Below, one piece after another: positions 17,441 to 44,360 of a stretch of 64,000 nt of DNA (position 1 is its first letter; every line of letters starts with the position of its first letter). Origin of the DNA: a virus (taxonomy: Duplodnaviria > Caudoviricetes); the IMG/VR virus record IMGVR_UViG_3300028914_000061, positions 64,001 to 128,000 of that record; one strand, 5' to 3'. Below the pieces are notes generated by a model that did not search any database, was not told the origin of the DNA, and worked only from the letters and a program-made list of their open reading frames with translations. A program made the translations under genes and the position numbers.

Positions 17441-17584
17441 GTTGCAGTTTGGCACGATTGTTGCAGTGTATTGTAGTGTTCATTCTGTTCTTGATTAAGG
17501 AAACAAAAAAAAAGTTTCAAGCCGTGAGCAGTTTGGCACAATTATTGTAAGAGTAATAGTATAACCAATTAAAATTAAAAAGTC

Positions 17585-18166
17585 ATGGAAACAACCGCAA
17601 GAAAGTACAAGAAAGAAACCTTCATTGAATATGCCAAGCACATTGTAGAAGGATATAAGACAATCATTGCAGCCTACGGAGTAATTTCGAAGGTTGGCTT
17701 GACGATGCACGGAAAAGTTTTCAACAAGCGTTTTGAAAGTGAGATTGAAAAACACTGCAAGGAAGAAGGTATCAATGTTTCTATTTGGGTGAACGACCAA
17801 TATAATATGGGGTATAAAGATTTGAAGATTTACCTCCAAGACAGGTCTTTCAATGGCGGCGATTGTTGGATTTACTTCGACAATGACATCTACCACAACA
17901 ACATTCACAACTGCAACAATGCCTTCGTTGATGGCGACAATAGAATCATTGGCGTTAAGGTTGCCGAAACTTGCAATGAATATATTGAACTTTGCAAGAA
18001 AGACATGACAAAGTGGCAGGATGCGGCAGACAACTATGACAAATATGCAGAGCAGGTGACAGCCGCTTTGAAGCAGTTGAATGAAGCCTTTGAAGGTCTT
18101 AACTCACTTTTCAAGCCTTACACCATTTCCCAATATGATTGGGAGAATGAAGCGAAGAAAAAATAA
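17585..18166 (+). CDS. Hypothetical early protein
   Basis: Own sigma54-type promoter and AATTAAAATT leader. Confidence 0.85.
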   Translation: METTARKYKKETFIEYAKHIVEGYKTIIAAYGVISKVGLTMHGKVFNKRFESEIEKHCKEEGINVSIWVNDQYNMGYKDLKIYLQDRSFNGGDCWIYFDNDIYHNNIHNCNNAFVDGDNRIIGVKVAETCNEYIELCKKDMTKWQDAADNYDKYAEQVTAALKQLNEAFEGLNSLFKPYTISQYDWENEAKKK

Positions 18167-18168
18167 TA

Positions 18169-18182
18169 TACGCAAATGCGTA
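18169..18182. repeat. Palindrome TACGCAAWTGCGTA copy 1
   Basis: Abuts -24 box. Confidence 0.9.
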
Positions 18183-18307
18183 CTTTGGCACGGAATTTGT
18201 AAGTAGTAATATCGAAACAATCAATAACCCAAAACACTGACGGAGGCGGTTGGTGTCCACAAACAAAGTGGTTTAATTACCTTGAAGGAAGGATAGCCTA
18301 AAACAAC

Positions 18308-18637
18308 ATGGTTAAAATGATTCTCGTTGCTATGGTTGGAAAACTCGCTCAAACCATTATGAACATGATGGGCGTTCCGAACTCCACTGAAAACACCGAA
18401 AAAGCCCTCGCCATTGCCGAATGCGTTGTTTCGGTTGAAATGGGTGAAAAGAAAACGAAGGCAATCTCAAAACTCTATCGTGACCTCGGCTTGAATGGTT
18501 GGCGCAACGAAGCCATGACACACGCCACCATCGAAGCCTACGAGAATGTCAAAAAGTCAGGCGGTGACGAATTGGCAGTTTTGCTCGAAGTTGAGCGATT
18601 GAGAACGGGAGCCGACTTTGTGGGTCTTGAACTCTAA
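18308..18637 (+). CDS. Hypothetical early protein
   Basis: Promoter, about 100-nt leader, terminator 18650-18682. Confidence 0.8.
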   Translation: MVKMILVAMVGKLAQTIMNMMGVPNSTENTEKALAIAECVVSVEMGEKKTKAISKLYRDLGLNGWRNEAMTHATIEAYENVKKSGGDELAVLLEVERLRTGADFVGLEL

Positions 18638-18762
18638 ACGAACAAGGGAAAAGGGGAAGCAAAAAAAAGTTTCCCCTTTTTTCGTTTTTTGAAAATCCTG
18701 GCACAATTATTGCTTATATTGTAGTGAACATTATTTATTAACCCAATTAAAAACACAAAACT

Positions 18763-19038
18763 ATGAAAATGAAAGCCACTTTTTTCGTAATGTCAATGAC
18801 TGAATTTGTTGATGGAGTTGAATACCACAACAAGCCGACAGCGCACAGCAACGAACAAGAAGCCGAAGCAGCCATGAACAAAAAGGCTGATGAATGGATT
18901 TCAACATTCAAGGGGATTGATGATTTCAAGCCGAAAGATGCAAGAACTTGCGACACCATCGAAGTCAAAGATGAAAACGCACCCGACACCTACATCAAGA
19001 TTTGGATTGACAAGGTGAGTTTGGAAGTTGAAATTTAA
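18763..19038 (+). CDS. Hypothetical early protein
   Basis: Promoter cassette. Confidence 0.8.
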   Translation: MKMKATFFVMSMTEFVDGVEYHNKPTAHSNEQEAEAAMNKKADEWISTFKGIDDFKPKDARTCDTIEVKDENAPDTYIKIWIDKVSLEVEI

Positions 19039-19141
19039 TCAACAAAAAAAAATAATGGCGGTGCTAAAAAAAGTGCCGCCATTTTTCATTTTTGGAATGG
19101 TTTTTGTATTCTATTGTAGTGAACACTAAAACACAAATGCT

Positions 19142-19429
19142 ATGTTTACGAAGTATCGCAAAAGAAACAATCAAAGACTTCTATTCATTGACAACACAAT
19201 AATGATTGAAGAGGGCAGTACTATCATTGCCATTGGCAGAGAGAACAAAATGTTTTCAACTGAAAAGACCATTGCCTTTGACATTGCCACCATTGAGGGA
19301 GCAGACAAGAATATGATAAAAAGGTTTGTCAAGACCGCATTACTTTACAATAACGATAAACGGATTTTAAATTATAATTTTTTGGAAGAAAAAGAATTAA
19401 ATTACAAGCCAAAACTTACATTTTCGTGA
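19142..19429 (+). CDS. Hypothetical early protein
   Basis: Variant promoter TTTGGAATGG. Confidence 0.75.
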   Translation: MFTKYRKRNNQRLLFIDNTIMIEEGSTIIAIGRENKMFSTEKTIAFDIATIEGADKNMIKRFVKTALLYNNDKRILNYNFLEEKELNYKPKLTFS

Positions 19430-19477
19430 ATTTTTGGCATGATATTTGTGTATTATTATAGTGAACATTAAAAACGA

Positions 19478-19714
19478 ATGACTATGAACTACGAAGAACT
19501 TGTTTCCAAAGTTGGCGAAGAGAACGTACATTGCTGCAACATTTGTGGCAAACCGCTTGAATGGGACGATAACATTTGGATAAATTCCAATTTTGGAGTT
19601 TGTGAAGATTGTTACAACAAAATTCCCCAAAGGATTCAAGATAAGATAGAAGAAGAATTGTACGAGGAGGAAGAGGTGAAAAATTATCTTGATTCAGTTG
19701 GCGCAATCTATTAG
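19478..19714 (+). CDS. Small CxxC/CxxC zinc-binding protein
   Basis: CNICG..CEDC. Confidence 0.8.
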   Translation: MTMNYEELVSKVGEENVHCCNICGKPLEWDDNIWINSNFGVCEDCYNKIPQRIQDKIEEELYEEEEVKNYLDSVGAIY

Positions 19715-19764
19715 TTTGGCACGATTATTGATGTATATTAAAGTGAACGTAAAAACACAAAACC

Positions 19765-19998
19765 ATGAGTAAATTAGTCAATGGCACTTGCCCCGAAAAC
19801 GAAAAGCGTTTTGCTATCATTAACCCTACATCATATAATTGTGATGGTAATTGGGCGGTCACTATCTGCGAAAGCAATGAACTTGGCGACCTCGGTCTTG
19901 ACGATGACGAAATCAAGCAGGTTGAGCAGTTGGAAGTTGGCGAAAGATGGGCGGAATCTTTTTATGGATTGAACGCACAAATTGTTAGGTTGGGATAG
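19765..19998 (+). CDS. Acidic hypothetical early protein
   Basis: Promoter cassette. Confidence 0.8.
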   Translation: MSKLVNGTCPENEKRFAIINPTSYNCDGNWAVTICESNELGDLGLDDDEIKQVEQLEVGERWAESFYGLNAQIVRLG

Positions 19999-20190
19999 CA
20001 GTTTGGCACGATTGTTGCTTATTATTTCAGTGAACAATTAAATAACAAAAGCAATGGGAGAGTTTATACTTGGTTTTTTAGTTGGATTTATGGCAATGTT
20101 CTTGATTGCTTGCAAGATGGATGAACCTACAAAATAGTTTTGGCACGATTATTGTAAGTAATATAGTGTAACCAATTAAAATTAAATACC

Positions 20191-20367
20191 ATGAGTAAAG
20201 TTTATATGAAGGTCACGCTCAACTTGATTGTTGATACTGACATTCCCGAAACGGCAGACATTATGGAAGGTCTTGATTTTGAAGTCACTCCTAATGGTGA
20301 GGCTGACGATGACATTGAAGTTTACGATGTGGAAGTGGAAGATTACGAAGTAACCGATTCAAAATAA
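20191..20367 (+). CDS. 58-aa very acidic early protein (below ORF-track cutoff)
   Basis: MSKVYMKVTLNL...DDDIEVYDVEVEDYEVTDSK, own promoter. Confidence 0.8.
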   Translation: MSKVYMKVTLNLIVDTDIPETADIMEGLDFEVTPNGEADDDIEVYDVEVEDYEVTDSK

Positions 20368-20373
20368 AAAGCC

Positions 20374-20845: not shown

Positions 20846-20902
20846 CTACTTTGGCACGATATTTGATTATAATTAAAGTGAAATCATTAAATAATTAGAA
20901 TT

Positions 20903-21103
20903 ATGACTTTTGTAGCAGCCATTCAATTAATTTTATTGTGCATCCAACTAACGTTCTTGGCAGGAACGATTTACTCAACCACTAAAAAGGGCGAGGAACA
21001 AATCAAGAAAGAATTTAAAATGGAAACCCAAAAGTTCAGAAACATTTGCCTATACGGAAACTTGGGTTGCATGGCAATCATTTTGTTGCTGAATCTTTTC
21101 TAA
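20903..21103 (+). CDS. Small membrane protein
   Basis: Two TM segments, promoter cassette. Confidence 0.75.
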   Translation: MTFVAAIQLILLCIQLTFLAGTIYSTTKKGEEQIKKEFKMETQKFRNICLYGNLGCMAIILLLNLF

Positions 21104-21133
21104 AAGTTTGGCACGATATTTGATAAAGAAACA

Positions 21134-21275
21134 ATGACGATGTTATCGGGAATGGTAAGTTCGCCCTATGCGAAGGGAGGTCTTTGGTGAGATTCCAAAG
21201 GGTAGCGCTAATCGTCATGCTTGCGCAAGCCCCCCATGTGTCCCTTGGTCGCAATACAAGGGACACCCTTGGGGA
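21134..21275 (+). ncRNA. GC-rich structured 5' leader or ncRNA
   Basis: ATGACGAT/ATCGTCAT, CTTTGG-TGAGATT-CCAAAG, GTGTCCCTTG/CAAGGGACAC. Confidence 0.6.
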
Positions 21276-21304
21276 ATAGAAAACAACAACAAAAACATAA
21301 AACT

Positions 21305-21628
21305 ATGAGAATCAATTTCAACATCAAGCCATACTCCGATTTTACGGGAATTGGCACTAAAAAAGAAGCACTTGCACGTCTTGAAAGCCGATGGGGACTT
21401 CGTGCGGTTCCTAATTGCTTTTCGACTTATGGAGATTTCCAACATCGTGGACTTGACAATGATACCGCTTGGCTCTACACCATTCAAGTGTATAAGCACG
21501 GCAAGCATCGCAAATGCAAGAATTATCATGTTTGGGTCTATCGTGTTCCGATTAAGACTTTGGAAGTTCTTGGAATCAAGATGAGCCAAATGCGCAACGG
21601 AATCAAGATTGAAAAACTCAATAAGTAA
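21305..21628 (+). CDS. Basic hypothetical protein (start revised to MRINF)
   Basis: ATG after A-rich leader; terminator follows. Confidence 0.75.
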   Translation: MRINFNIKPYSDFTGIGTKKEALARLESRWGLRAVPNCFSTYGDFQHRGLDNDTAWLYTIQVYKHGKHRKCKNYHVWVYRVPIKTLEVLGIKMSQMRNGIKIEKLNK

Positions 21629-22248
21629 ACCATGTTGTTTGCAGGGGAGGGACAAAAAAGTTTCTCCCCTTGCCCATTTTGGCACGATTCTTGTGTATTA
21701 TTGTAGTGACAATTAAAATTAAAAGCCATGACAAAAGCAGAATGTATTTCAAGAGGTTGCCCGATGCTCATCAAAAAGAGAGACAAGGTTACGATGTTGC
21801 CTTATTGGGTCTGCGGTGTAACCAACCAAGACGTTAAGAAAGTCCATAACTGCGTAAACAAGCCACATTAAACCATGAACAAAGAAAGATTTATTGAAAT
21901 TCTATCCAAGCCGATGAGCGAGGTAATGAATGACCCAACTATCTCCGATGAAGAGTTTTCATTTTGCATGGAAAACTGCGAAAAAAATATTGACGAAATC
22001 GAATTTGACGAATAGTTTGGCATAGATTTTGATTATTATTTTAGTGAACATTAAAACAAAACAACATGGGAACAAAGACTTACAAAGTAAACCGAAAAAA
22101 GGCAATCGAACTTGCCATGAATCATAACAATGTGACAAGGGAGGTTGCTGAACGTTACACCGATAGCGAACTGAAGGAAGTGCTTGCTCATCTTTCGGGC
22201 AGATTCTTTAAGATGGAAGCCGATTTCTAACCATTAAAACAATTAGCC

Positions 22249-22554: not shown

Positions 22555-22604
22555 TTTGGCATGATTATTGCTATAATTGAAGTGTAACAATTAAAATTAT
22601 AATT

Positions 22605-22826
22605 ATGGCTACACAATCCGACATTGCGCTGATTAGTTCTAATCCATTTGTCATTAAAAAGGAGCATGGAACGAGACCTTCATATTTGAAGTCATTGCCG
22701 AATCATTTTACCGATGACATTTCGGAAGCGAGAAAGTTTGCGACTGAAACGGCAGCAAAGAACAATATGCTCAAAATCACAACCTATTCACTGAATCCAA
22801 ACCATTATTCAATCATTAGGCTATGA
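22605..22826 (+). CDS. Hypothetical early protein
   Basis: Promoter cassette. Confidence 0.75.
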   Translation: MATQSDIALISSNPFVIKKEHGTRPSYLKSLPNHFTDDISEARKFATETAAKNNMLKITTYSLNPNHYSIIRL

Positions 22827-23017: not shown

Positions 23018-23428
23018 GTGTTCATATCTTTTGTGTTTTTGGCCGGAAATTTCTTGTAAGTTTCCGACTTTTTTTTATTACTTTGGCATGGTTTTTGTGT
23101 ATTATTGTAGTGTATATTAAAACGAATCACCATGAACGACACACAAAAGATTGAAGCAATCAAAAAAGAGATTGAAAGCACTCACTTGAATACATTGGAG
23201 GATATGGGCGAAATGCTTGATAGCATCATCCGTATTGTCTATGGAGTTGAAAAGACAAAACCATTATTTGAAAAGAAAGGGATTTGATTATGGAAATTTT
23301 ATGTGCTTTTTTGCTTTTGTGTGTTATTGCAATGACAATTACCTGCATTTATGTATCAAACAAAAGTCAAAAGGAAAATGATGAATTGAGGAAAGAACTC
23401 AATGAATTAAAATCTCAAATAGATAGTT

Positions 23429-23707
23429 ATGGTAACGATAGATAGTTTGTTTCACTTGGTAAAGCATTATCATTTGGACGATGATGAAAATTGCTTTGAC
23501 AAGGCGATAGAAATGGCAAGCAACCAACTTTCCGATGTGTTGGAAAAGGAAAGGGAATATCCACCATTTATTTACTATTTGTGCTTGGAGCAAATGGAGA
23601 AGAATCCAAAGTACAAGTTTGGCAAAACATTTCATTCAATGAATGATGAAGAAAAAACTTGTGTATTCAATGAAACAATTTCAGCATTGAAAGCACTTTT
23701 GGCATAG
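23429..23707 (+). CDS. Hypothetical protein
   Basis: ORF in cassette run. Confidence 0.7.
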   Translation: MVTIDSLFHLVKHYHLDDDENCFDKAIEMASNQLSDVLEKEREYPPFIYYLCLEQMEKNPKYKFGKTFHSMNDEEKTCVFNETISALKALLA

Positions 23708-23764
23708 TTTTTGATTATAATTTGAGTACAAACAAACACATTATTAACTTAAATCTAAATTACA

Positions 23765-24274
23765 ATGAAGAAAATCTTTTTTGCTATCGCCATTATTTTT
23801 GCCACTACACTTGTTGGCTTCGCACAATCAACGGCTATCCATTTTGATAATGGAAAATATGACATGATGCTTCACCCGAAAAACCCAACGGGTCAAAACA
23901 TCGAAGTTGTCACTTTCATTGGCTATGATGCAATTTCGCAAACTCGTTCAACGAAGAAAATCGAAGTTGATTACGAAGTTATTGATGGCGTTCAATATGC
24001 TTTGGAGAACTCAAAAAGAATGAAAAAGTTTGCTACTACTGAACTAATAGGTCTTGGCGTTTGCCTTGCAGGTGGAGAACTAATGCACTATTCATACAAA
24101 CAATTTGGCAAGCACCCGAATGACCATTATAAAAATTTAGCCTATGTTGGAGGTGCGGTTGCTATGGCAGGTGCTTTGACTTGTATTTTAGGCTATATTC
24201 CGCTATTGAATGACCATGTTTATGTTACAAACAATGGGATTGGAATACGATACAAGATTAAAAGTTTGAATTGA
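23765..24274 (+). CDS. Exported or membrane protein
   Basis: Signal peptide, two Gly-rich TM segments, terminal beta strand. Confidence 0.8.
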   Translation: MKKIFFAIAIIFATTLVGFAQSTAIHFDNGKYDMMLHPKNPTGQNIEVVTFIGYDAISQTRSTKKIEVDYEVIDGVQYALENSKRMKKFATTELIGLGVCLAGGELMHYSYKQFGKHPNDHYKNLAYVGGAVAMAGALTCILGYIPLLNDHVYVTNNGIGIRYKIKSLN

Positions 24275-24385
24275 CCCCATGCGAGAATGTAAATATTTGT
24301 AAAAAAGTCACTTTTCGGAGTGGCTTTTTTCATTTTTGGCATGGTATTTGTATTATATTGAAGTGAACACTAAACACAAAAGACT

Positions 24386-24691
24386 ATGGCTAATAACATT
24401 GAAAATTACCAAAAGTGCCAATGCGGTGCAATAACTTTCTACTTTGAAGATGGAAGTTCAAGCAGTATGCGCCAACGCACTGCAAAGAAGATGGGAATTG
24501 ATTTGAGGCACTATAAGAGCCTTAGACCAACTTGGAATTGCAATCATTGTGTTAATCATTGGGGAACTGACATCTGCGAATGTGGCAGTGGTGAAAAGGT
24601 TGGAAAATGTTCTTGCGGCTCCAATAGACCAATGCAAGAGTTTGGCATAAATTTTGATTCATTTAGCCGTATAATTCAAAACTTTTGCTAA
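24386..24691 (+). CDS. Cys-rich metal-binding protein
   Basis: CQCG, CNHC, CECG, CSCG. Confidence 0.8.
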   Translation: MANNIENYQKCQCGAITFYFEDGSSSSMRQRTAKKMGIDLRHYKSLRPTWNCNHCVNHWGTDICECGSGEKVGKCSCGSNRPMQEFGINFDSFSRIIQNFC

Positions 24692-24692: not shown

Positions 24693-25103
24693 ATGGAATT
24701 GAACGAGATAAGGAATAAAATGGCTCAACTTTTGGAAGAGCATAAAGCCCTTGAAGAAGAGTTGAAGAACGCTATGGTGGCTATCATCAATGAGACAGCA
24801 GAAGAAAGCCCGAATAAGAAAAAGAGAATAGCCAAGCATATTTTTATTCTTAATGCTTCTGACATCATGGGTAATCCGTGGAATGTAGAGTTTTACGATT
24901 GGGAGGCTTCTGCAAAGGTTGTCTTGGATTATCTTGAATTGAAACCTATCTACGATTGGAAAGCATTGTTGGAAAAGAAGTTAGAAGAAGCCAAACGTAA
25001 TGTGGTAGAGTTTAAGAAAATATCATCTTGCATGGGTTACAAAACTACCTATGTAATTCCAATTAGCAAAGAATTTGTTGAAAAAATTGTAGCCAAAATG
25101 TAA
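24693..25103 (+). CDS. Hypothetical protein
   Basis: Coupled ORF. Confidence 0.8.
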   Translation: MELNEIRNKMAQLLEEHKALEEELKNAMVAIINETAEESPNKKKRIAKHIFILNASDIMGNPWNVEFYDWEASAKVVLDYLELKPIYDWKALLEKKLEEAKRNVVEFKKISSCMGYKTTYVIPISKEFVEKIVAKM

Positions 25104-25157
25104 TGTTTTGGCACGATTATTGTTTATTATTATAGTGTAATCTAAAAACGCAAAAAA

Positions 25158-25493
25158 ATGATACACGCAACTTTTAAAACGATTGATGATATAATCAATA
25201 ATTTTAATTTGGTTGGTGGAATGAGTTTGTCGTTTGGTGATAACAGCAAATTTTCCACTTCCCATTTTGACATCAATGCAAATAATGATTCAATTCCATT
25301 TAAGGAGGGTTGGATTAAAAACATTAGTCTTTACTATGCGGAGAACGAGGAAACGGGTAAAACTGAACTGCGAACTGACATCAAAATTGAACTTAAACTA
25401 TATTGTTCTTGTGCTGAAAGACCTACAATGATAGTCAATAAATCTTGGTTTGATAAAAATGTATCAAACATTAGTGTTTGGGGCATCAAATGA
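25158..25493 (+). CDS. Hypothetical early protein
   Basis: Promoter cassette. Confidence 0.8.
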   Translation: MIHATFKTIDDIINNFNLVGGMSLSFGDNSKFSTSHFDINANNDSIPFKEGWIKNISLYYAENEETGKTELRTDIKIELKLYCSCAERPTMIVNKSWFDKNVSNISVWGIK

Positions 25494-25550
25494 TTTATTT
25501 TGGCATGATTTTTGTGTATTATTTTCAACGTAAATTAAAACCAAAATACA

Positions 25551-25862
25551 ATGAGCAAAGTAAGAGAATTAGAAGATAATGTTTCGCAAGACAATTTGTT
25601 TACCATTGGTAAGCAACTTATTCAGTGTATTGGGTTTATGGATTGGTGCTATTGTCAATACAACACCGATAAAAGAACAACCGAGGATTTAGTCCTGCAC
25701 AATGAAAATGCAAGGTACGATAGTCCCGATAGATGGTGGAGGTATCGCTTTTTCCGCCTTTGCCGACTGCCTTTCAAGGTCAAATACAAGTGGGTTGGCT
25801 ATGACCACGTTTTCAAAGTAAGACCCGAAATTTGGATTAGGCTTTATCACATCAAAGACTGA
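25551..25862 (+). CDS. Hypothetical early protein
   Basis: Promoter cassette. Confidence 0.8.
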   Translation: MSKVRELEDNVSQDNLFTIGKQLIQCIGFMDWCYCQYNTDKRTTEDLVLHNENARYDSPDRWWRYRFFRLCRLPFKVKYKWVGYDHVFKVRPEIWIRLYHIKD

Positions 25863-25913
25863 TTTGGCACGATTCTTGTAGTATATTGTAGTGACAATTA
25901 AAATTAAAATACC

Positions 25914-26120
25914 ATGAAAGGAATAGACATTATTAATTATATCAAAGAGAACAACCTTGAAGATGCAGAGGTAAGTGTGACCGCTACAATCTACCGACAA
26001 GGCGACCACGATTGCAGAACAACAACAAATGTTTCCGTTATGGAATCGTCAGTCTATGACGATGAACAAAGGAAATATGTTCCTGCCATTGATTTCTATG
26101 TGGATGATGAATTGTATTGA
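25914..26120 (+). CDS. Hypothetical early protein
   Basis: Promoter cassette. Confidence 0.8.
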   Translation: MKGIDIINYIKENNLEDAEVSVTATIYRQGDHDCRTTTNVSVMESSVYDDEQRKYVPAIDFYVDDELY

Positions 26121-26172
26121 GTTTGGCACAAAATTTGTAGTAATTGAAGTGTAACCTTAAAAACATCGAACT

Positions 26173-26445: not shown

Positions 26446-26498
26446 AAATTGGCACGATTTTTGATTATAATTGTAGTGTAACCTAAAAACATCGAACT

Positions 26499-34774: not shown

Positions 34775-35644
34775 ATGATTTTAGTTACTTATCCTATCAG
34801 CACACAAGAAAATCAAATTATCGAACACCCCGACAAGTCGTTTAGAATGTTCGACACTACCGAAAAAGAAGATTCAAAGAAAGTATTTATGATGCTTCTT
34901 GCTCAATTCGGCAACGATTTAAGCATCTACAATATGTCAAGCCGTTCACAATCAACGTTCTTTGAAAACGTTGGAAATCTCTTTGACTATATCAACAACG
35001 AAGATGTTTCGTTTGAAAACTCATGGTGCGTTTTGCTCAACCTTGAAGAAGATGAAACTCGTGCCATGATGAACAAGTACAAGCGAGACTTTATCATTGT
35101 TGAAGATGGTAAGCCTATTTGCTTCGATGACAAAGAGATTGTTGTCTATGGCGATATTGAGTGCGCCTATGCAGAAAAACATGGCGGAAGTATCTATTGC
35201 TTGCTGAGCATTGAAGACCCCGACAACAAAGAATTATACGATGTTCATGTTCTTTCTTTCGACAACAGCATTGTAGAAGTCCACGATTACAAAGCCCCAA
35301 AAATTGACAAGGATTGGTTTAGTGTCTCTTTCAATGACCTTTCACAATTCTTTGCAGAGGCTGAAAAAAGCGGCTATGACCAAGTTGTCTATGTGACAAA
35401 TTGTCAGTATGTGAACTGCAAGTACGTTGACCATGATTCCGCTCCTGCCATTGCAGCCTTCGACAGCAAGGAAAAAGCAAAGCAAGACCTCAAAGACACA
35501 CTTGAATATGTCAAAGAAGAGTTTTTGCAATACTACGAAGAGAAAGAACTTGTCATTGTCGAAAAAGACAATTACGTTGAAATCCATGATATTGACCACA
35601 TGGATTGGTGGTGGGGTAAACTCTACGAAACGGAACTGAAATAA
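34775..35644 (+). CDS. Acidic hypothetical early protein
   Basis: Promoter cassette. Confidence 0.85.
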   Translation: MILVTYPISTQENQIIEHPDKSFRMFDTTEKEDSKKVFMMLLAQFGNDLSIYNMSSRSQSTFFENVGNLFDYINNEDVSFENSWCVLLNLEEDETRAMMNKYKRDFIIVEDGKPICFDDKEIVVYGDIECAYAEKHGGSIYCLLSIEDPDNKELYDVHVLSFDNSIVEVHDYKAPKIDKDWFSVSFNDLSQFFAEAEKSGYDQVVYVTNCQYVNCKYVDHDSAPAIAAFDSKEKAKQDLKDTLEYVKEEFLQYYEEKELVIVEKDNYVEIHDIDHMDWWWGKLYETELK

Positions 35645-35758
35645 CCTCCTTTCTTAATACACATTTTTTTGAAAAGCAGTGCATTTTTTTGTACTGCTTT
35701 TCTCTTTTTGGCACGGTTTTTGTGGTATATTGCAGTGAACATTAAACAAACACACACT

Positions 35759-36208
35759 ATGGAAAATTACATTTCAAGAGACAAATTCAAAGAATTGATT
35801 GGTTGGAATTGTGCCAATGAGCCTTATGGTTGGCAAGCCCTTAAACTTGCAAATGGTTTGAATGGCGCAAGGTTAAGTGGAGCAAAGATTTTCGACAATC
35901 ACTATTCAGTATATTATAAGTACGATGTTAGAAGTGGCAAATACTATTTTCCTATTGTTTTCAAAATGGGTGTTCGTGGATTTGTGGCACACAATATTGA
36001 AGAACTTGAACATTTCCTTAACGAGATTAAACAATGCCATTTCAGCGTAATGGATAGAATTGTTGAGGAAAGGATTGAAAAAATGGTAGGTTGTGATATA
36101 GTAGAAATAAGAAAGCACGAAATTTCCCATGAAGATAGAATCCCTTACGATGAATCTTACGATTGGTACAAAGAACAATTTAACGGATATTGGTATGTAG
36201 AGTGCTAA
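35759..36208 (+). CDS. Hypothetical early protein (start revised)
   Basis: ATG after promoter and leader. Confidence 0.8.
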   Translation: MENYISRDKFKELIGWNCANEPYGWQALKLANGLNGARLSGAKIFDNHYSVYYKYDVRSGKYYFPIVFKMGVRGFVAHNIEELEHFLNEIKQCHFSVMDRIVEERIEKMVGCDIVEIRKHEISHEDRIPYDESYDWYKEQFNGYWYVEC

Positions 36209-36263
36209 TTTTGGCATGATATTTGTAAGGAAATAAGTATAACCAATTAAAATTATAAGAACT

Positions 36264-36593
36264 ATGATTAAAGAAGTTGGAAACATCGAACTTGAAAACG
36301 GATTTCTCTTCAAGTTTTGGAGTGACAAATTAGGCAAGTCCTTTTATGTAGTCCAATTCAATGATTGGGGCTATATCAATATCTTTGACGAATCAAAAGA
36401 AAAGGTTGCAGTCAATAGCCTTCTTGACCGAGATATTTCTTGCCAAGATAGGGATGATACCCTTCCCATGAATCTTTTGTCCGAAGATGAGGAATTTTAT
36501 TTCAAAGAGTATTGCAATGTATTGGAAGAACAAAATTTCCAATATGAATATGCAGCAAAATTATTTTTCATGGAATTTCCTATTCCGTGGTAA
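36264..36593 (+). CDS. Hypothetical early protein
   Basis: Promoter cassette. Confidence 0.8.
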   Translation: MIKEVGNIELENGFLFKFWSDKLGKSFYVVQFNDWGYINIFDESKEKVAVNSLLDRDISCQDRDDTLPMNLLSEDEEFYFKEYCNVLEEQNFQYEYAAKLFFMEFPIPW

Positions 36594-36648
36594 TTTGGCA
36601 TAGTTTTTGATTATAATTAAAGTGTCTAACCAATTAAAATTAAATAAT

Positions 36649-37170
36649 ATGTATTACAAGAGAATTAACAAGTCCGAAAACGAAGGTATTGCTCAACTTG
36701 AAAAATCCTATGAGGGATTGAAAACGAGAGTTGGCGTTATCGTCAGCAATGATGAAGAAGGCGAATTTCTTCTTGTGCCTACTGAAATGTTAGGCGACTA
36801 CGTTGTTACCTGTGTTTCAAAGACCGATGTACGTTCAAAGGGCTTTGATACTGCCAAAGTAACCGATGAGCAAATGAGAGAACTTGCCGAACAAATTGAA
36901 TCCGATTTGGTGGAATACGGCAACTATTGGGACACCATCTGCGACACTGCCGAAGATTGGGGACTGCCGAGAATCCATATTGTTGTCGAATCCGACTATG
37001 GCGAGGCTTGCATTGAGCCTTCAAGCGATGGCGATGGCTATTACGATGTATTCATTGGCGATGATTTTGATGATTATGTTGGCACACTGATTTTGGATGA
37101 TGCTGACCTCCAAGACATGGACAAACTCGTTGAGGAAGTAAATTCACTTTTCAAAGACGAAGCAGAATAA
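36649..37170 (+). CDS. Acidic early protein (start revised)
   Basis: ATG after leader; D/E-rich C-terminus. Confidence 0.8.
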   Translation: MYYKRINKSENEGIAQLEKSYEGLKTRVGVIVSNDEEGEFLLVPTEMLGDYVVTCVSKTDVRSKGFDTAKVTDEQMRELAEQIESDLVEYGNYWDTICDTAEDWGLPRIHIVVESDYGEACIEPSSDGDGYYDVFIGDDFDDYVGTLILDDADLQDMDKLVEEVNSLFKDEAE

Positions 37171-37369
37171 GGCTGAAAGCGTTCACTAAATATTTTGGAA
37201 GCGGTGCTTGAAAAAGTGCCGCTTTTTTTTTATAGTTTGGCATGATTTTTGTGCTATATTGTAGTGAACATTATGCCCGAAAAAAAATAAAAATTTTAAT
37301 CCATGAAGTTGAAAAATGGCATGGTTTTTGATATAATAAAGTAAGTCTAACCAATAAAAACATAACACT

Positions 37370-37549
37370 ATGGAAGAGAAAATGTATTGTCCCGAATGTG
37401 GCCATGAGTTTGTTCAAGGCGAATCCAATTACAATTATGAAACCGCAAATACGGACTATGTTTGCCCCGAATGTGGTTGGGAAGGAACCCACAATGAAGT
37501 CATTGATGGTGATGAAATGGAAGTTGACGAAATCGGAGAACTTGACTAA
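37370..37549 (+). CDS. 59-aa zinc-ribbon protein with acidic tail
   Basis: CPECG twice. Confidence 0.8.
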   Translation: MEEKMYCPECGHEFVQGESNYNYETANTDYVCPECGWEGTHNEVIDGDEMEVDEIGELD

Positions 37550-38357: not shown

Positions 38358-38418
38358 CTTTGGTACGGTTTTTGATTACTAATTAAATTGAACATTAACA
38401 AACACACAAATTAAAATT

Positions 38419-39150
38419 ATGAAGTATAACGTTGGCGGAACTATGCTGTCCTGCATTTTTAGAGATGGCATTGAAGCATCTTCAAAAGAAGAGGCTGTCG
38501 AAAAATTTAAAAAGATTGTTCAAAAAAGCATCAGTGGCGTTGATTGGCTTGAATGGCGTGAAGTTGAGGCTGAGGAAGTCAAAGACTACACTACCAAAAT
38601 CAACAAGGTTCTCGCTGATTGTGGCTACGGCTCATCATACATGGTTGATAAAACACCAAAACTTGTTTGCAGTGGCGCACCTACCACTCCCAAGTGTTTC
38701 AATAACGTTGATGTCTATAAGGCAGAAGTTAGATGCGGTGGCGTTCTGTATTTCATTGTCATTGGAACAGACATTTACCTGCCGGTGACCCAAGACCATT
38801 TCTGTATGCCCACAAGTGACTTTTGGGAGAAAGATTTGGGCTTGAATAACGTCCTCAAAATGTTTTGGATGGCAAGAAACAACATCTATGCGTTCAACAA
38901 TAGTGGCGACTTGATTGCTCTCTATCTTTCGTCAAGAAACTATGGAATGTCCACGCTTGGCGCACGAATCATGAACATCATTACCAAGTTGCCCGATTAT
39001 TTGAAGATTGGATACTTCCTTATGAGGTCGGAATCAAGATACCTTGAAATGAAGTCTTGTGACGGAAAACACACGTTGAAGGCAACATTCTCATCTTGCG
39101 AAGACGAATATCCTGATACGTTCATGCAAATTTCAAAGATTATTCCGTAA
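38419..39150 (+). CDS. Hypothetical early protein
   Basis: Variant promoter TTTGGTACGG. Confidence 0.8.
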   Translation: MKYNVGGTMLSCIFRDGIEASSKEEAVEKFKKIVQKSISGVDWLEWREVEAEEVKDYTTKINKVLADCGYGSSYMVDKTPKLVCSGAPTTPKCFNNVDVYKAEVRCGGVLYFIVIGTDIYLPVTQDHFCMPTSDFWEKDLGLNNVLKMFWMARNNIYAFNNSGDLIALYLSSRNYGMSTLGARIMNIITKLPDYLKIGYFLMRSESRYLEMKSCDGKHTLKATFSSCEDEYPDTFMQISKIIP

Positions 39151-39215
39151 AATTATAATTGTCATACTATTTATTTTTTAGGAGTTTAATAATAACTTTT
39201 AATAAATAAATTAGT

Positions 39216-39578
39216 ATGGCGATTACAATAGCAGCTTTACTGCAACAACTTTTAATCTTTATCCCTACCATTATTGCAAGTACAACAGTTATCACTGGTG
39301 CTATTAACGGTGCTTTCGATATTGAAAATGCAAATGCAAAGCATATCATATCATGGGTCGTAGCAATATTATGCGGAGTATTGACAGTCTTAACAGGCGG
39401 GTTGACATTCGGATTAGGCTGGGTTGATTACTTAATTGGTGCAGGTTTCGGTCTCGTAGCAGGAGGCGCAGCAAATGGATTGTACGATTGGCCAGCAATA
39501 TCAAATATCATTGACAAATTCTATGACTTGTTCGGTCACGGAGAAACAATAAAGGCCAAACGTGCAGTGAAAAAGTAA
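39216..39578 (+). CDS. Holin-like membrane protein
   Basis: About three TM segments, AANGLYD, basic tail, CTATTTAT upstream. Confidence 0.6.
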   Translation: MAITIAALLQQLLIFIPTIIASTTVITGAINGAFDIENANAKHIISWVVAILCGVLTVLTGGLTFGLGWVDYLIGAGFGLVAGGAANGLYDWPAISNIIDKFYDLFGHGETIKAKRAVKK

Positions 39579-39582
39579 AATA

Positions 39583-39596
39583 TACGCAATTGCGTA
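39583..39596. repeat. Palindrome copy 6
   Basis: TACGCAATTGCGTA upstream of class II promoter. Confidence 0.9.
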
Positions 39597-39691
39597 TCGT
39601 TTAACTAAAAAAATATTTGATATTAAGAAATTAAAATTGTATATTTAATAAGTGCTTATGAAGCATAGTAGTAAGCACTTTTCTATCGAAT

Positions 39692-39764
39692 GCGGCATTC
39701 GTATAACGGTTTAGTATACCAGCCTTCCAAGCTGGGGGTGAGGGTTCGATTCCCTTATGCCGCT
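39692..39764 (+). tRNA. tRNA-Gly(TCC)
   Basis: GCGGCAT/ATGCCGC, CCAGC-CTTCCAA-GCTGG, U73. Confidence 0.93.
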
Positions 39765-39852
39765 CAAGCAACGTTGGCTCGTTTCAAGTACTTTGGCGTT
39801 AAACAGTACTCGCTTGGCGGCTATGTTTGTTACTAACCGCATTGCTGCCCAC

Positions 39853-39958
39853 AATGCAAGGAGATGTGGGGGGCTCAGCGTAGCCTGAATACGTTAGTGG
39901 GTGATACCACGAAGTAGTGTTCTTGGGTTTACTACTATCAACAACAAATCCATGCATT
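39853..39958 (+). ncRNA. Putative structured RNA with H-type pseudoknot
   Basis: AATGCA/TGCATT closing; TCAG/CTGA and CGTA/TACG. Confidence 0.4.
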
Positions 39959-41546: not shown

Positions 41547-41859
41547 GAAACTTATGGAGTTTTATTAGTTTCGCTTCTGTTTGAAAAACTAATTGGTGGA
41601 GTATAGGACAACCGTACACCCAGGCTTCCATGAGCCTCTTGCTTGGCAAGTTTCGATTTTAAATCATGGAACAATGTGTGTTTGTTTGCACGGAATTCTC
41701 GAATTTCGTGCTTTTTTTTTATCTAATTGAAATTTCTGGCACGGTTTTTGTTGAATATTGTGGTGTTCATTCTATATTAAATTATGAACAAATTAAAATT
41801 TTAATGCCAAATCGAATAGTCTGGCACGATATTTGATAGGGTAAGAAAAAAGTAAAATT

Positions 41860-42033
41860 ATGACACCTGAAGAAAATTTAGTTAAAGAACTCAAGGAATG
41901 GAGAGATGCTTGTAAGGAAGCACATGAAGAAGGTCTGAAGAAGAATGTCTATGAATTAGGCTTCCATCTTACGTACTTACAATTGGATAAGTTAATTAAG
42001 AATTACGAAGAAGAAACCATTCCTGAAGCTTAA
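41860..42033 (+). CDS. 57-aa hypothetical protein
   Basis: After sigma54-type promoter, precedes sigma factor gene. Confidence 0.7.
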   Translation: MTPEENLVKELKEWRDACKEAHEEGLKKNVYELGFHLTYLQLDKLIKNYEEETIPEA

Positions 42034-42051
42034 AAATAAAATTTTAATAAT

Positions 42052-42948
42052 ATGATTAATGTGAAGAGTTACAATAAAATCAGAAAAAAGGATGACCTCG
42101 TTGTTGCCTACTTGACTGACATCAAGGGCTCCAAGAGCAAACCTATCTCTCCTGAGGAAGAGAGAGACCTGCTTGTGAAGTACTACGCCGATGGTACGTC
42201 TGAAGCAGAGAAGACTGAAATCAAGAAGAAGATTGTGATGTCACATCAAAGATTCCTCTATGACATAGCCAACTGTTATTCCAATGGCGACAATGGAATG
42301 CTGCTTGAACTCATCAATGTCGGAACCATCGGTATGTACGAGACGTTTGACAACTTCGACATCACCAAGGATAATAAGTTCATGACGTATGCACAGTACT
42401 ACGTCCGTAGAGCAATCAAGCACTTCCTGGATGATGAGAACCTTGTGGTGCGTCCTGCAAACAATGCAAAGATTACTCCTAAGGTAAAGAAGATTGAAGA
42501 GGAATTCTACAGAACTCAGGGCCGTAAGCCTACTATCTTCGAAGTGGAAGACATCCTGTTCGAGAAATATGGCATCGAACTCGCTGACAGAAATGACATT
42601 TATGGAGCCACAATTGAAAGAATTGAAGACACCACTGATGGTTCTGAAGACGATAACTACACATTCGAGATGTCCAAGGATTTCACAGACTATGCGTCTA
42701 CTGAGAATGACTACGAAGTCGAAACCAGGAAGAGTGACACCGCTTACGAAGTAGCCAAGGCAATTTCAAGGCTCCCTGAGCGTGAGGCACAAATCATTAA
42801 GATGGCTTATGGCATGGGCGACTACAATAAGCCTTGCAATAACATCGAAATCGGTGAGGCGCTTAACTTAACATCTGAGAGAGTCAGACAACTCAGGAAA
42901 GGTGCTGAAGCCAGGTTGAAATCTTTACTTGAAAAAATTGAAGTTTAA
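42052..42948 (+). CDS. RNA polymerase sigma70 factor, RpoD/RpoS-like (lacks region 1.1)
   Basis: AYLTDI..ISPEEE, ELINVGTIG..FD..KFMTYA.YYVR, region 4 LPERE..IGEALNLTSERVRQL. Confidence 0.93.
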   Translation: MINVKSYNKIRKKDDLVVAYLTDIKGSKSKPISPEEERDLLVKYYADGTSEAEKTEIKKKIVMSHQRFLYDIANCYSNGDNGMLLELINVGTIGMYETFDNFDITKDNKFMTYAQYYVRRAIKHFLDDENLVVRPANNAKITPKVKKIEEEFYRTQGRKPTIFEVEDILFEKYGIELADRNDIYGATIERIEDTTDGSEDDNYTFEMSKDFTDYASTENDYEVETRKSDTAYEVAKAISRLPEREAQIIKMAYGMGDYNKPCNNIEIGEALNLTSERVRQLRKGAEARLKSLLEKIEV

Positions 42949-42973
42949 TTAAAATTTTTGTATATTATAAACT

Positions 42974-43285
42974 ATGAAAAAACTTGTATTTGTATTAATA
43001 TTAGCATTCACCATGGTCCTTACAGGATGTGAATGTGGATGCGGGGTCGAAGGTTCTGTAGTCGAAGTCGAACCAAGCGATGTGATGACCATCAAAGTTA
43101 ACACTGAATTCGGTTGGCGTAAGATTCACAGATATACCTGTGACATCAATGGAGAACTGTGGTACGTATATTATGTACAGGACCATGGCATTACCCAACT
43201 CGAAAGAGTTAACAGTGTTCCCGGTAATCAGGATAAGCCTGATGACAGCGCTATCCTACAGGAAGAACATTATTTCGATTTTTAA
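42974..43285 (+). CDS. Putative lipoprotein
   Basis: MKK-hydrophobic-LTGC lipobox. Confidence 0.75.
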   Translation: MKKLVFVLILAFTMVLTGCECGCGVEGSVVEVEPSDVMTIKVNTEFGWRKIHRYTCDINGELWYVYYVQDHGITQLERVNSVPGNQDKPDDSAILQEEHYFDF

Positions 43286-43310
43286 ATAACAATTAAAATT
43301 ATACATAGCT

Positions 43311-43751
43311 ATGAATGATAAAGAAGCAGAATTAATCGGAAGATTACAAACAAGTATCAAGTATGGTCCTAATTCATGTATCCACCGTCCAAGACCAGAA
43401 TCAAAACCATCTGAAAAGGTTGACAGAGTTGAACAACTCGTTCAGTCAGTAAGAAGAGCAAAGGACATGACTAAGAAAGATGACAATGGCGAATATGAAA
43501 TGGTCAACCATCCTAAGCATTACAACAACTACGATGTAGAAGTTGTTGATATGATGGAAAAGATTTGGGGTACGAAAGCAACCATGGAGTGGTGCAAAAT
43601 GACCGCCTATAAGTATCGCATGCGCATGGGCACAAAACCTGCCGAAGATGATACTAAGGAAGCCATGCAAAAGAAACTCATGGAAGACTTCAACAAAGAG
43701 CAATGGTATCTTGCAAAAGCCAAAGAACTTTCATCAAAATTGTCGCACTAA
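43311..43751 (+). CDS. DUF3310 (SaV / T7 gp1.7-like) protein
   Basis: VNHPKHY..KYRMRMG.K..EDFNKEQWYL. Confidence 0.85.
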   Translation: MNDKEAELIGRLQTSIKYGPNSCIHRPRPESKPSEKVDRVEQLVQSVRRAKDMTKKDDNGEYEMVNHPKHYNNYDVEVVDMMEKIWGTKATMEWCKMTAYKYRMRMGTKPAEDDTKEAMQKKLMEDFNKEQWYLAKAKELSSKLSH

Positions 43752-43769
43752 AGAATAATTAAAATTAAA

Positions 43770-44000
43770 ATGGTCACAAGAGAACAAGCCAAAGAAAGAG
43801 CCCTCGAAATGATTAACCAAATCATTCGTACTGAAGGTGGACAATCCATCGGGCTCACTAAAAAACAAAAAGGAAAAAATTCATGGACAAATATTGAAAT
43901 TAAAAATGCAATTATCCATGATTGTAATTTACCTAATGGGCCAAATCCCGTAGATGAGATTTATGATTCCCTTGTGTATATGGAAAACCATGGTATGTAA
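43770..44000 (+). CDS. Hypothetical protein
   Basis: A-rich leader. Confidence 0.75.
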   Translation: MVTREQAKERALEMINQIIRTEGGQSIGLTKKQKGKNSWTNIEIKNAIIHDCNLPNGPNPVDEIYDSLVYMENHGM

Positions 44001-44078
44001 CGCATAGCATACGTAATGAGTTTTTTTTATTATTTTTGTGGGCCTTTCGCAAGAAGGGCCCAATTTTTTTTTATAATA

Positions 44079-44092
44079 TACGCAATTGCGTA
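44079..44092. repeat. Palindrome copy 8
   Basis: TACGCAATTGCGTA. Confidence 0.9.
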
Positions 44093-44360
44093 CTGGTCCT
44101 GCATAGTTTGGCACGGTTTTTGATATACATTGCAGTGTTATGAATAAGTCACCGCCGTAATATCGGAAACATATTAAACAATTGGATGGCCAAATGCCAC
44201 ACAGGGGCTGAACGCAAAACTGTGAGTAGGAGAGTAGACTCCAACACGTAAAAAGCGAATAGTAGAGTAGACTCCAGCATACCCTTTATTTTTTTTAATT
44301 AAAATTATAATTTTTTAATATATCTACCGACTATTTATTATTATCTAATTTTAATTTTAT

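Follow-up and report, generated by a model that had tools for sequence, protein, structure and literature searches.

The window examined here, a stretch of 64,000 nucleotides from an uncultured T4-like phage of ~360 kb, carries sigma-54-type promoters before almost every small non-structural gene, in a phage with no detectable sigma-54 or activator genes. The likeliest reader of these promoters is host RNA polymerase carrying host sigma-54 (probability about 0.6), and the genes behind the array are probably early genes. No published study describing a phage programme on sigma-54-type promoters before nearly every small gene was found, in agreement with an earlier note on this DNA that knew of none.

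The promoter array and its placement

The pattern TGGCAYR-N4-TTG was found 54 times in the window, compared with 0.70 expected from shuffles (the largest shuffle value was 3). The earlier note had counted about 55 such sites, including a perfect copy at 17448 and seven on the - strand at 48–61.5 kb, and all three statements were reproduced: 46 matches were on the + strand (17450–44122), seven on the - strand between 48020 and 61510, and one more - strand match lay within the + strand arm (Table 1). In the full 148-kb record there were 64 matches versus 3 for a reversed control pattern. None of the 64 was inside the structural and replication arm, and the first 56 kb of the record, with the virion and replication genes, had 0 matches. 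The matrix of the 64 sites was A-g-T-T-TGGCA-Y-G-r-T-t-t-TTG, and the next base was T (32 sites), A (25) or C (7). A scan with the flank columns only recovered the exact core at 33 of the 35 best places, so the core is practically invariant; two one-letter variants are listed in Table 1. These data support the assignment of TGGCAYR-N4-TTG as a sigma-54-type -24/-12 element.

Most sites were oriented with the genes. A same-strand ORF started 23–65 nt past the first T in 53 of 64 sites (median distance 49 nt; 45–55 nt at 45 sites), and in half of them (32/64) the stop codon of the upstream ORF ended at most 9 nt ahead of TGGCA. Host-type upstream enhancer boxes were absent at the phage sites, and the earlier remark that the cassettes leave little room for upstream enhancers holds. 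On the + strand arm, the small accessory genes nearly all had a site of their own ahead of them. However, the claim of one site per gene was true only for ~17.4–37.4 kb, whereas the - strand arm had approximately one per operon. Sites also stood ahead of - strand operon heads, some tRNA genes and the sigma-factor operon of the phage, and terminator hairpins were present just upstream of some cores. At record position 56091, the mature 5' end of tRNA-Asn lies 18 nt past TTG, a geometry that fits a start 12 nt after -12. Besides, eight copies of a palindrome, ATATACGCAA(A/T)TGCGTA, were detected (core starts 18170, 20833, 29069, 32993, 38345, 39584, 40317 and 44080), six of which adjoin a sigma-54-type core; it is probably a protein-binding site.

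Table 1. Features of the array in window coordinates; "core" denotes a sigma-54-type TGGCAYR-N4-TTG match unless called variant.
Feature	Position	Strand	Context
Core TGGCACG-ATTG-TTGCA, perfect TTGCA	17450–17463	+	First of tandem pair; no ORF within 120 nt
Core	17534–17547	+	ATG at +51; ORF 17585–18166
Palindrome, first of 8	18166–18183	not assigned	
Core	18186–18199	+	Adjoins palindrome 18170; no ORF within 120 nt
Core	18699–18712	+	After terminator hairpin 18646–18683; ORF 18763–19038
Variant core TGGAAT	19093–19106	+	Full downstream consensus; ORF 19142–19429
Core	19435–19448	+	ORF 19478–19714
Core	19717–19730	+	ORF 19765–19998
Core	20004–20017	+	Then short ORF only
Core	20141–20154	+	ORF 20191–20367
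Core	20852–20865	+	Adjoins palindrome 20833; ORF 20903–21103
Core	21109–21122	+	Then G+C-rich stretch; possible non-coding RNA or ORF 21236–21628
Core	21680–21693	+	ORF 21728–21871
Core	22018–22031	+	ORF 22066–22230
Core	22557–22570	+	ORF 22605–22826
Core	23084–23097	+	After terminator hairpin 23044–23066; ORF 23132–23287
Core	23700–23713	+	ORF 23765–24274
Core	24337–24350	+	After terminator hairpin 24301–24330; ORF 24386–24691
Core	24643–24656	+	Within 3' end of preceding ORF; ORF 24693–25103
Core	25109–25122	+	ORF 25158–25493
Core	25501–25514	+	ORF 25551–25862
Core	25865–25878	+	ORF 25914–26120
Core	26124–26137	+	ORF 26173–26445
Core	26450–26463	+	ORF 26499–26924
Core	26928–26941	+	No ORF of at least 30 aa within 120 nt
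Core	27410–27423	+	ORF 27458–27697
Core, lone - strand one in + arm	27791–27804	-	Back to back with 27831; points into two-way terminator hairpin, so short antisense RNA possible
Core	27831–27844	+	ORF 27883–28146
Core	28153–28166	+	ORF 28202–28561
Core	28564–28577	+	ORF 28614–29063
Core	29088–29101	+	Adjoins palindrome 29069; ORF 29138–29566
Core	29578–29591	+	ORF 29631–29984
Core	29990–30003	+	ORF 30037–30345
Core	30353–30366	+	Then non-coding stretch ending in tRNA-Lys (30785–30858)
Core	31191–31204	+	ORF 31240–31770
Core	31773–31786	+	ORF 31825–32082
Core	32085–32098	+	ORF 32135–32467
Core	32453–32466	+	ATG just 23 nt off; doubtful promoter for that ORF
Core	33010–33023	+	Adjoins palindrome 32993; ORF 33065–34138 (357 aa)
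Core	34182–34195	+	ORF 34235–34729
Core	34722–34735	+	ORF 34775–35644
Core	35709–35722	+	After terminator hairpin 35671–35702; ORF 35759–36208
Core	36212–36225	+	ORF 36264–36593
Core	36596–36609	+	ORF 36649–37170
Core	37238–37251	+	First of tandem pair
Core	37317–37330	+	ORF 37370–37549
Variant core TGGTAC	38361–38374	+	Adjoins palindrome 38345; ORF 38419–39150
Core	41737–41750	+	First of tandem pair before sigma operon; tandem layout kept in relative G002
Core	41822–41835	+	ORF 41860–42033, then sigma gene
Phage sigma-70-family factor, regions 2 and 4	42052–42948	+	Downstream of motif; orthologues in G001, G002, G008
Core	44109–44122	+	Adjoins palindrome 44080; then conserved non-coding leader, not ORF
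Core	48020–48033	-	ORF 47620–47982
Core	48505–48518	-	ORF 48039–48470
Core	53254–53267	-	ORF 52931–53221, operon head
Core	53656–53669	-	ORF 53277–53621
Core	54471–54484	-	ORF 53966–54436
Core	59171–59184	-	ORF 58530–59138, GmrSD_N-like domain
Core	61497–61510	-	Heads - strand operon

Relatives, hosts and known promoter systems

Relatives with the same capsid protein (76% identity) and an orthologue of the sigma factor had the same array in its textbook form, TGGCACG-N4-TTGC(A/T). C at -12 occurred in 39 of 44 sites of G008, 22 of 26 of G004 and 12 of 24 of G001, and the sequence of the N4 spacer differed from phage to phage, as expected if two boxes are recognised. Clusters of the canonical motif were also present in G005 and in the unrelated, complete G007 and G009, all lacking this capsid and this sigma; this observation is best explained by a host factor.

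The hosts are probably Bacteroidales, judging from leaders without Shine-Dalgarno sequences and from the contig of a close relative, which was binned in a Bacteroidales MAG. The DNA-binding domain of rpoN was present in all 61 Bacteroidales genomes sampled. We found that 48 Bacteroidales groES and dnaK promoters followed TGGCAYA-N4-(T/A)TG-A and that the phage core was identical to them; together with the canonical form in relatives, this agrees with the earlier assignment to the RpoN -24/-12 type. This chaperone promoter class of Bacteroidota has been published as a sigma-54 regulon (PMC9723704; PMC12316311): in Flavobacterium psychrophilum it is class SM4, with mapped start sites and assigned to sigma-54 (Guerin et al. 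2021, PMC9723704), and the same class was reported for Bacteroides thetaiotaomicron (PMC12316311). On the basis of the published motif and start-site evidence, we regard the host class as sigma-54. Of the 48 groES and dnaK promoters, 37 carried A at -12 and just 4 carried C. Thus, T or A at this position is not special, and its use by the earlier note as a sign of activator independence is not supported, since regulated promoters of the probable hosts mostly carry A.

The SM4 chaperone and protein-quality-control promoters have in common with the phage sites the boxes TGGCAY(A/G)-N4-TTG with A or T as the next base, equal spacing and a T-rich dinucleotide before the core. They differ in the TGACA/TGTCA repeat boxes that stand upstream of them, in their longer leader (median ~66 nt from first T to ATG versus 49) and in lacking the AT-rich TATAGT tract (A+T from -12 to -1 is 65%, versus 81% in the phage). 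The phage sites have none of these boxes, follow the preceding stop codon directly and number at least 64 in one replicon, against a handful per regulon in the host.

Classical enhancer-dependent sigma-54 promoters, such as glnAp2, nifH and pspA, have the consensus YTGGCACGr-N3-TTGCW. The invariant GG, the invariant G of the -12 box and the exact spacing are common to these and the phage sites, and in G008 and G004 the agreement extends to the full consensus. However, this phage has T or A for the -12 C in 57 of 64 sites, and its sites have no linked enhancer or enhancer-binding protein gene.

T4 uses host sigma-70 for early, MotA/AsiA for middle and gp55/gp33/gp45 for late genes. As in T4, host core polymerase would serve throughout, phage sigma-type factors would take over for the later classes, and a short box of their own (CTATTTAT here) marks the virion genes. 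Unlike in T4, the first class would be transcribed with a host sigma that is alternative and activator-dependent, not with the primary one. Promoter-early stem-loop (PeSL) cassettes of T4-type phages (Arbiol et al. 2010, PMC2839356) are similar in that a strong promoter of early type stands before each small gene of unknown function in a hyperplastic arm, some promoters are paired with terminator hairpins, and the cassette order differs among close relatives, the breakpoints lying at the promoter module; PeSL promoters, however, are of sigma-70 type and read by the host primary holoenzyme, whereas the module described here is of sigma-54 type. The T4-like Mosigvirus AV110 encodes Htm (gp204), an AAA+ protein whose structure resembles that of enhancer-binding proteins; this hints at a possible contact of T4-like phages with sigma-54 that needs no canonical activator, the link of Htm to sigma-54 being a hypothesis (bioRxiv 10.64898/2026.10.06.757011). 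An AAA protein (371 aa) is also encoded by this phage. No sigma-54 promoter array has been described for AV110.

Reading of the array

The phage would have copied the promoter type of the chaperone (heat-shock) genes of its hosts, which are probably Bacteroidales. Host RNA polymerase with host sigma-54 would bind TGGCAYR (-24) and TTG (-12) and start ~12 nt downstream of TTG, within a conserved AGTG. The resulting leader, ~23 nt long (TAACCAATTAAAA...), would contain no Shine-Dalgarno sequence. The closed complex might be opened by a host activator acting from solution, e.g., the heat-shock activator, or by an unrecognised phage or virion protein, and the AT-rich tract from -11 to -1 may help. 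Virion and replication genes, many of which are preceded by CTATTTAT-type boxes, would be on these other signals, presumably read with phage sigma factors. A search for rpoN and enhancer-binding protein genes, a check proposed in the earlier note, detected neither rpoN nor a true enhancer-binding protein gene in the phage family, nor a GAFTGA motif; RNA polymerase genes (PF00623, PF00940) were not found in the family either, complete G001 included. The earlier interpretation is upheld in part, i.e., for the sigma-54-type element and not for the -12 argument or a sigma54 of the phage's own. Several observations speak against reading by sigma-54. Just 7 of the 64 sites of this phage have C at -12, one of the bases that define the classical consensus; no enhancer-binding protein gene, GAFTGA motif or host-type upstream box was found, and we know of no initiation by sigma-54 without an activator. 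Also, a conserved AT-rich TATAGT/TATTGTAGTG tract lies between -12 and +1, which is not a sigma-54 promoter feature and can be read as a -10-like box.

This tract is central to the idea that a sigma-70-family factor of the phage reads TTGGCA as -35 and TATAGT or TAGTGT as -10 across a 16–18 nt spacer, the likeness to sigma-54 being coincidence or convergence. We consider this unlikely, even though a consensus scan gave TTGGCA-N16/17-TATAGT at many sites, TATAGT(A)TAGTG is common to this phage, G002, G004 and G008, and at least two sigma-70-type factors are encoded in the family. G001, the tRNA promoters and the host promoters keep both sigma-54 boxes but have the -10-like box out of place or not at all; the invariant TTG(C) would fall in the spacer, which is unexpected for -35/-10 promoters; and TTGGCA as -35 would place the start inside tRNA-Asn. 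Moreover, the sigma gene itself sits behind the motif in this phage and in G002, so the reader must pre-exist that sigma, phages without this sigma also carry the motif, and agreement with the sigma-54 consensus at 12 positions is unlikely to have arisen by chance.

Quite unlikely, too, is a scheme resembling T4 middle transcription, in which a phage activator on TTTGGCAYG near -30 redirects host sigma-A holoenzyme to TG plus TAnnnT. An activator expressed from these very promoters could not start the programme, and a search of the phage family, complete G001 included, detected no homologue of MotA, although it had no positive control. The phage is T4-like, the geometry fits (a 9-bp box 9–12 nt upstream of the TAnnnT hexamer) and TTTG-n-TATAAT occurs at many of its sites, but the distance from TG to hexamer varies by 1–4 nt among relatives, host chaperone genes bear the same box pair without such a hexamer, and the sigma-A element of Bacteroidota is TAnnTTTG, not TATAAT (PMC9723704). 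Finally, it is very unlikely that the sites are sinks or roadblocks for sigma-54 holoenzyme, or chiefly recombination modules for cassette shuffling, with transcription coming from elsewhere. Sigma-54 does form stable closed complexes, no activator is visible, and homology blocks shared with a close relative begin at motif -2 in 14 of 22 cases; however, true promoter modules also recombine (PeSL, PMC2839356), no other shared promoter is found in these short gaps, and the strict orientation, the 45–55 nt spacing to start codons, the terminator hairpins just upstream and the placement ahead of tRNAs all point to promoters.

Number, placement and form of the motif

The pattern TGGCAYR-N4-TTG was found 54 times in the 64-kb window, against 0.7 matches in dinucleotide-preserving shuffles, and 64 times in the 148-kb record of the phage under study (G000), against 3 copies of a reversed control pattern. 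The first 56 kb of the record contained zero copies. A position matrix of the 64 sites read A-g-T-T-TGGCA-Y-G-r-T-t-t-TTG: the GG, C and A of TGGCA were constant, the next base was Y, and TTG stood at a constant spacing from GG in all sites and was followed by T in 32, A in 25 and C (the -12 C) in 7. Since the sites had been picked by the core, the record was rescanned with the flanking columns alone, and the exact core was present at 33 of the 35 best places. Because the flank-only scan recovers it, the constancy of the TGGCA core does not stem from how the sites were searched for.

We found that a same-strand ORF started 23–65 nt from the first T of the core at 53 of the 64 sites (median 49), that the stop codon of the preceding ORF lay within 9 nt of the core at 32 of the 64, and that a terminator hairpin immediately preceded several further sites, with at least five strong hairpins just upstream of sites. 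An earlier note, made from the sequence alone, had described the number, orientation and placement of the motif in much this way, and the shuffles, reversed control, flank-only rescan and ORF spacing bore it out. Its estimate of roughly one promoter per gene was appropriate for about 17.4–37.4 kb and not for the minus-strand arm, which had roughly one site per operon. Three tandem pairs with no ORF behind the first copy and two orphan promoters (see table) possibly correspond to short non-coding RNAs or leaders. The stretch after 44109 (GTGTTATGAATAAGTCACCGCCG...) was conserved in the related phage G002.

Coordinates of features in the window
Feature	Position	Remark
Tandem promoter pair	17450/17534	no ORF behind first copy
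Tandem promoter pair	37238/37317	no ORF behind first copy
Tandem promoter pair	41737/41822	no ORF behind first copy
Orphan promoter	44109	
Orphan promoter	27804	minus strand
Variant core TGGAAT	19093	from flank-only scan
Variant core TGGTAC	38361	seen beside palindrome copy at 38345
Palindrome ATATACGCAA(A/T)TGCGTA	18170, 20833, 29069, 32993, 38345, 39584, 40317, 44080	eight copies
Sigma-70-family gene	42052-42948	regions 2 and 4
(C/A)TATTTAT box	2132, 6605, 8931	candidate late promoter

Predicted start-site geometry and the promoters of the probable host

With GG at -25/-24 and TTG at -15 to -13, transcription would start at position 26–28 counted from the first T of the core, within a conserved (T)AGTG, giving a leader of approximately 23 nt. 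The mature 5' end of a tRNA-Asn lies 18 nt after TTG (record position 56091), a placement which fits a start located 12 nt past the -12 box with a leader of about 6 nt and would rule out any start lying 30 nt or farther from TTGGCA. Between -12 and -1, the sequence was 81% A+T in the phage and 65% in host promoters. Such a composition may ease opening, which is not in itself a demonstration of activator independence.

Assignment of a Bacteroidales host is indirect: it is based on G000 leaders without a Shine-Dalgarno sequence and on a Bacteroidales MAG (G013) containing contigs 83–96% identical to G000, which may simply be phage binned with the MAG. The RpoN DNA-binding domain (Sigma54_DBD) was detected in 61 of 61 Bacteroidales genomes sampled, and the sigma-54 protein on hand in the cell would be that of this presumed host. 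In Flavobacterium psychrophilum, the motif SM4, which is of the -24/-12 type and coincides with mapped 5' ends, stands ahead of groESL, lon, dnaK, grpE-dnaJ, htpG, clpB and skp (PMC9723704). A 2025 comparative study reported the same chaperone-gene enrichment in Bacteroidota and stated that groES and grpE of Bacteroides thetaiotaomicron are sigma-54 dependent (PMC12316311). When groES and dnaK upstream regions were taken from a sample of Bacteroidales genomes, TGGCA-Y-A-N4-(T/A)TG was found in 48 such regions, followed by A in 37, T in 6 and C in 4. This is the form of the phage core, the -12 C being mostly missing in both, and the -12 box of G000 seems to have drifted to the host's own form. 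The suggestion of the earlier note that T or A at -12 hints at activator-free initiation was not upheld, since the hosts' own regulated promoters carry A there (37/48).

Two further observations were made at bacterial loci. Repeat boxes TGTCAGAAT/ATTCTGACA, located 20–100 nt ahead of the -24 box in Bacteroidales groES/dnaK loci (L157, L158, L164 and others), are candidate binding sites of the chaperone-regulon activator. Two Bacteroidota loci examined as possible homologues of the ClpB encoded by the phage were set aside, being ClpC-like genes without a sigma-54 promoter, and gave no more than a way into the host genomes.

Related and unrelated phages, and the reading of the promoters

Related records were identified via an exact 16-mer of the motif, which matched many viral contigs, several with dense arrays. 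They included G001 (363 kb, complete; 32 sites), G002 (303 kb; 52 sites), G004 (116 kb; 27 sites) and G008 (217 kb; 68 sites). G001 shared a capsid protein with G000 at 76% identity, and a search of the records sharing the motif revealed a sigma orthologue in G001, G002 and G008 (38–58% identity). In these relatives, the core was the textbook sigma-54 consensus TGGCACG-N4-TTGC(A/T). C followed TTG in 39/44 sites of G008, 22/26 of G004, 12/24 of G001 and 10/35 of G002, compared with 7/64 in G000. Besides, the four-base spacer varied by phage (ATAG, AGACC, T-rich) and both boxes were fixed, as bipartite -24/-12 recognition would predict. Canonical-motif clusters also occurred in the unrelated phages G007, G009 and G005. 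G007 (108 kb, complete) had no sigma-70 region 2 match, G009 (335 kb, complete) had no orthologue of the G000 sigma, and both were without a homologue of the G000 capsid. No array was present in Flavobacterium phage immuto or Rhodothermus phage RM378, which are cultured distant capsid relatives, or in uncultured LR756508; because immuto and RM378 do not carry it, there is no ready laboratory model. G000 and its host are themselves uncultured. In G009 (L149, e.g. 3297-3331), cores also occurred in face-to-face pairs, TGGCAYR-N4-TTGC-TTAA-GCAA-N4-YRTGCCA, with about 15 in 20 kb. Such a palindromic pair may consist of two overlapping promoters that face each other or may be bound as a palindrome by a protein, and is another use of the same two boxes.

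The phage promoters would most economically be explained as sites read by the sigma-54 holoenzyme of the host, because the sigma operon itself lies behind the motif, at a conserved tandem pair, in G000 and G002, which means that this sigma cannot be the first to read it, because phages without the G000 sigma carry the motif, because the consensus match spans about a dozen positions and because the same boxes head the host regulon. A different reader, the phage sigma acting on TTGGCA-N16/17-TATAGT, is less likely and fits fewer observations: with TTGGCA as a -35 box the start would fall inside the tRNA-Asn at record position 56091. Fewer observations are also accommodated by a MotA-like activator box. 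MotA_activ (PF09114) had no match in G000, G001, G002 and G008, a weak negative because this search had no positive control. The same applies to a role of the sites as sinks or recombination modules. The Bacteroidota sigma-A promoter TTTG-N19-21-TAnnTTTG was rejected as the identity of the motif on account of its spacing, and none was present in the promoter gaps.

Sigma-54 is the one bacterial sigma factor that is not known to start transcription alone. A search for phage rpoN and enhancer-binding protein homologues, which the earlier note had proposed, gave zero Sigma54_DBD matches in five phage records (two complete), and matches to the sigma-54 activator domain (PF00158) were confined to the ClpB-like chaperone. 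No GAFTGA-like motif occurred in six frames of the 148-kb record, and no genes for multisubunit (double-psi) or T7-type RNA polymerases were detected, the PF00940 search being weak for want of a positive control. Divergent forms of sigma-54, activator, MotA or polymerase could escape such profiles. Host enhancer boxes (TGTCAGAAT, TGACA/TGTCA repeats) were not enriched upstream of phage sites, and activation by a host activator is still conceivable. Closed complexes formed by host sigma-54 could be opened by a host activator from solution, by an unrecognised phage or virion protein, or by other means.

Extending host sigma-54 reading to the group, we tentatively propose, with a probability of about 0.3, that an entire clade of giant Bacteroidales phages, together with several phages unrelated to it, runs an early/accessory programme on host sigma-54 from enhancer-less promoters and without a canonical activator gene. 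Opening would then follow an undescribed route, the candidates being a novel virion-delivered or early protein and a captured host heat-shock activator in solution; in the latter case, phage early transcription would be tied to the proteotoxic stress state of the host. To our knowledge, the phage programmes on record rely on the primary sigma, on sigmas of the phage or on phage polymerases, and none built on sigma-54 promoters was found in the literature. Closest to it came a putative sigma-54-like protein of Pectobacterium phage Q19 and the AAA+ protein Htm, which resembles enhancer-binding proteins and comes from a T4-like coliphage (bioRxiv 10.64898/2026.10.06.757011). The presence of at least 64 compact enhancer-less sigma-54-type promoters in one phage raises the question of what opens the complexes, and the answer could reveal an activator of a new kind or a connection of infection with the host's heat-shock circuit. 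If host sigma-54 reads these sites, rpoN or the activator of the chaperone regulon should prove to be a host factor for a group of phages that is widespread in gut and rumen. For Bacteroides genetics, the sites would also provide a set of short sigma-54 promoters of natural origin.

Promoter modules, palindromes and gene content

In the PeSL cassettes of T4-type phages, small genes whose function is unknown are flanked, in hyperplastic regions, by promoter plus stem-loop modules that recombine with one another (PMC2839356). The G000 arrangement is similar in that each small gene has its own promoter module, in some cases with a hairpin (46 plus-strand sites at 17.4–44 kb), and in that cassettes are reshuffled between close relatives. 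For example, window 17000-45000 and contig C165 (L229) of G013 contained the same cassettes in another order, at 75–99% identity in pieces. Fourteen of 22 homology blocks between G000 and C165, whose order was not collinear, began 2–3 nt before the core, and many ended about 45–55 nt after it. These edges suggest that recombination, as in PeSL shuffling, takes the promoter-plus-leader unit as its module. However, the G000 module is of the sigma-54 type (-24/-12 boxes), whereas the PeSL promoter is a strong sigma-70-type early promoter, so a PeSL-type shuffling module is found on a different promoter class.

Six of the eight palindrome copies ended 2–17 nt before a sigma-54-type core, and similar palindromes (GTACGCA..TGAGTAC, TATACGCAATTGCGTAC) occupied the same place in related phages. 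The palindrome ATATACGCAAATGCGTA is probably bound by a dimeric protein and regulates some of the promoters; it is too close to the promoter to be a classical enhancer.

The window covers bases 64001-128000 of the 148-kb IMG/VR record, whose CheckV completeness of 41% implies a genome size of about 360 kb. Genes of the record include those for a gp23-type capsid protein and for a portal and a terminase of the T4 type. It also encodes a ClpB-like chaperone, a UvrD-type helicase, a primase, ThyX and Dam methylases, and has a very large tRNA island. The large genes of the window, used as DNA queries, had zero matches in the phage collection, and a peptide-pattern search of viral contigs for the sigma gene confirmed nothing. 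Twenty-five genes behind the motif had almost no Pfam or PHROG family matches, which is typical of early/accessory genes in a hyperplastic arm. A different motif, (C/A)TATTTAT, precedes many virion and replication genes; it was located 5–80 nt upstream of 27 gene starts, mainly of virion genes (record 1-55000 and three window positions). This candidate late promoter differs in sequence from the T4 late promoter TATAAATA.

The tRNA island (record 53000-67400, i.e. window 1-3400 and upstream) contained about 40 tRNA genes, a tmRNA-like call and a CTA-anticodon tRNA, and at least three sigma-54-type cores lay 32–43 nt ahead of tRNA 5' ends. The sole AAA+ protein besides the ClpB-like one was a 371-aa protein (record 38798-39913; L011:798-1913; phrog_14322) with a classical AAA domain, proteasomal Rpt/BCS1-like, and an N-terminal half of no known kind; a role as an unorthodox activator would be pure speculation. 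In G002, the ClpB-like gene (L140/L142, 65-71 kb) was interrupted by an ORF whose matches were weak and endonuclease-like (DUF559/REase), so that its D1 and D2 halves are separate; this looks like a homing-type insertion.
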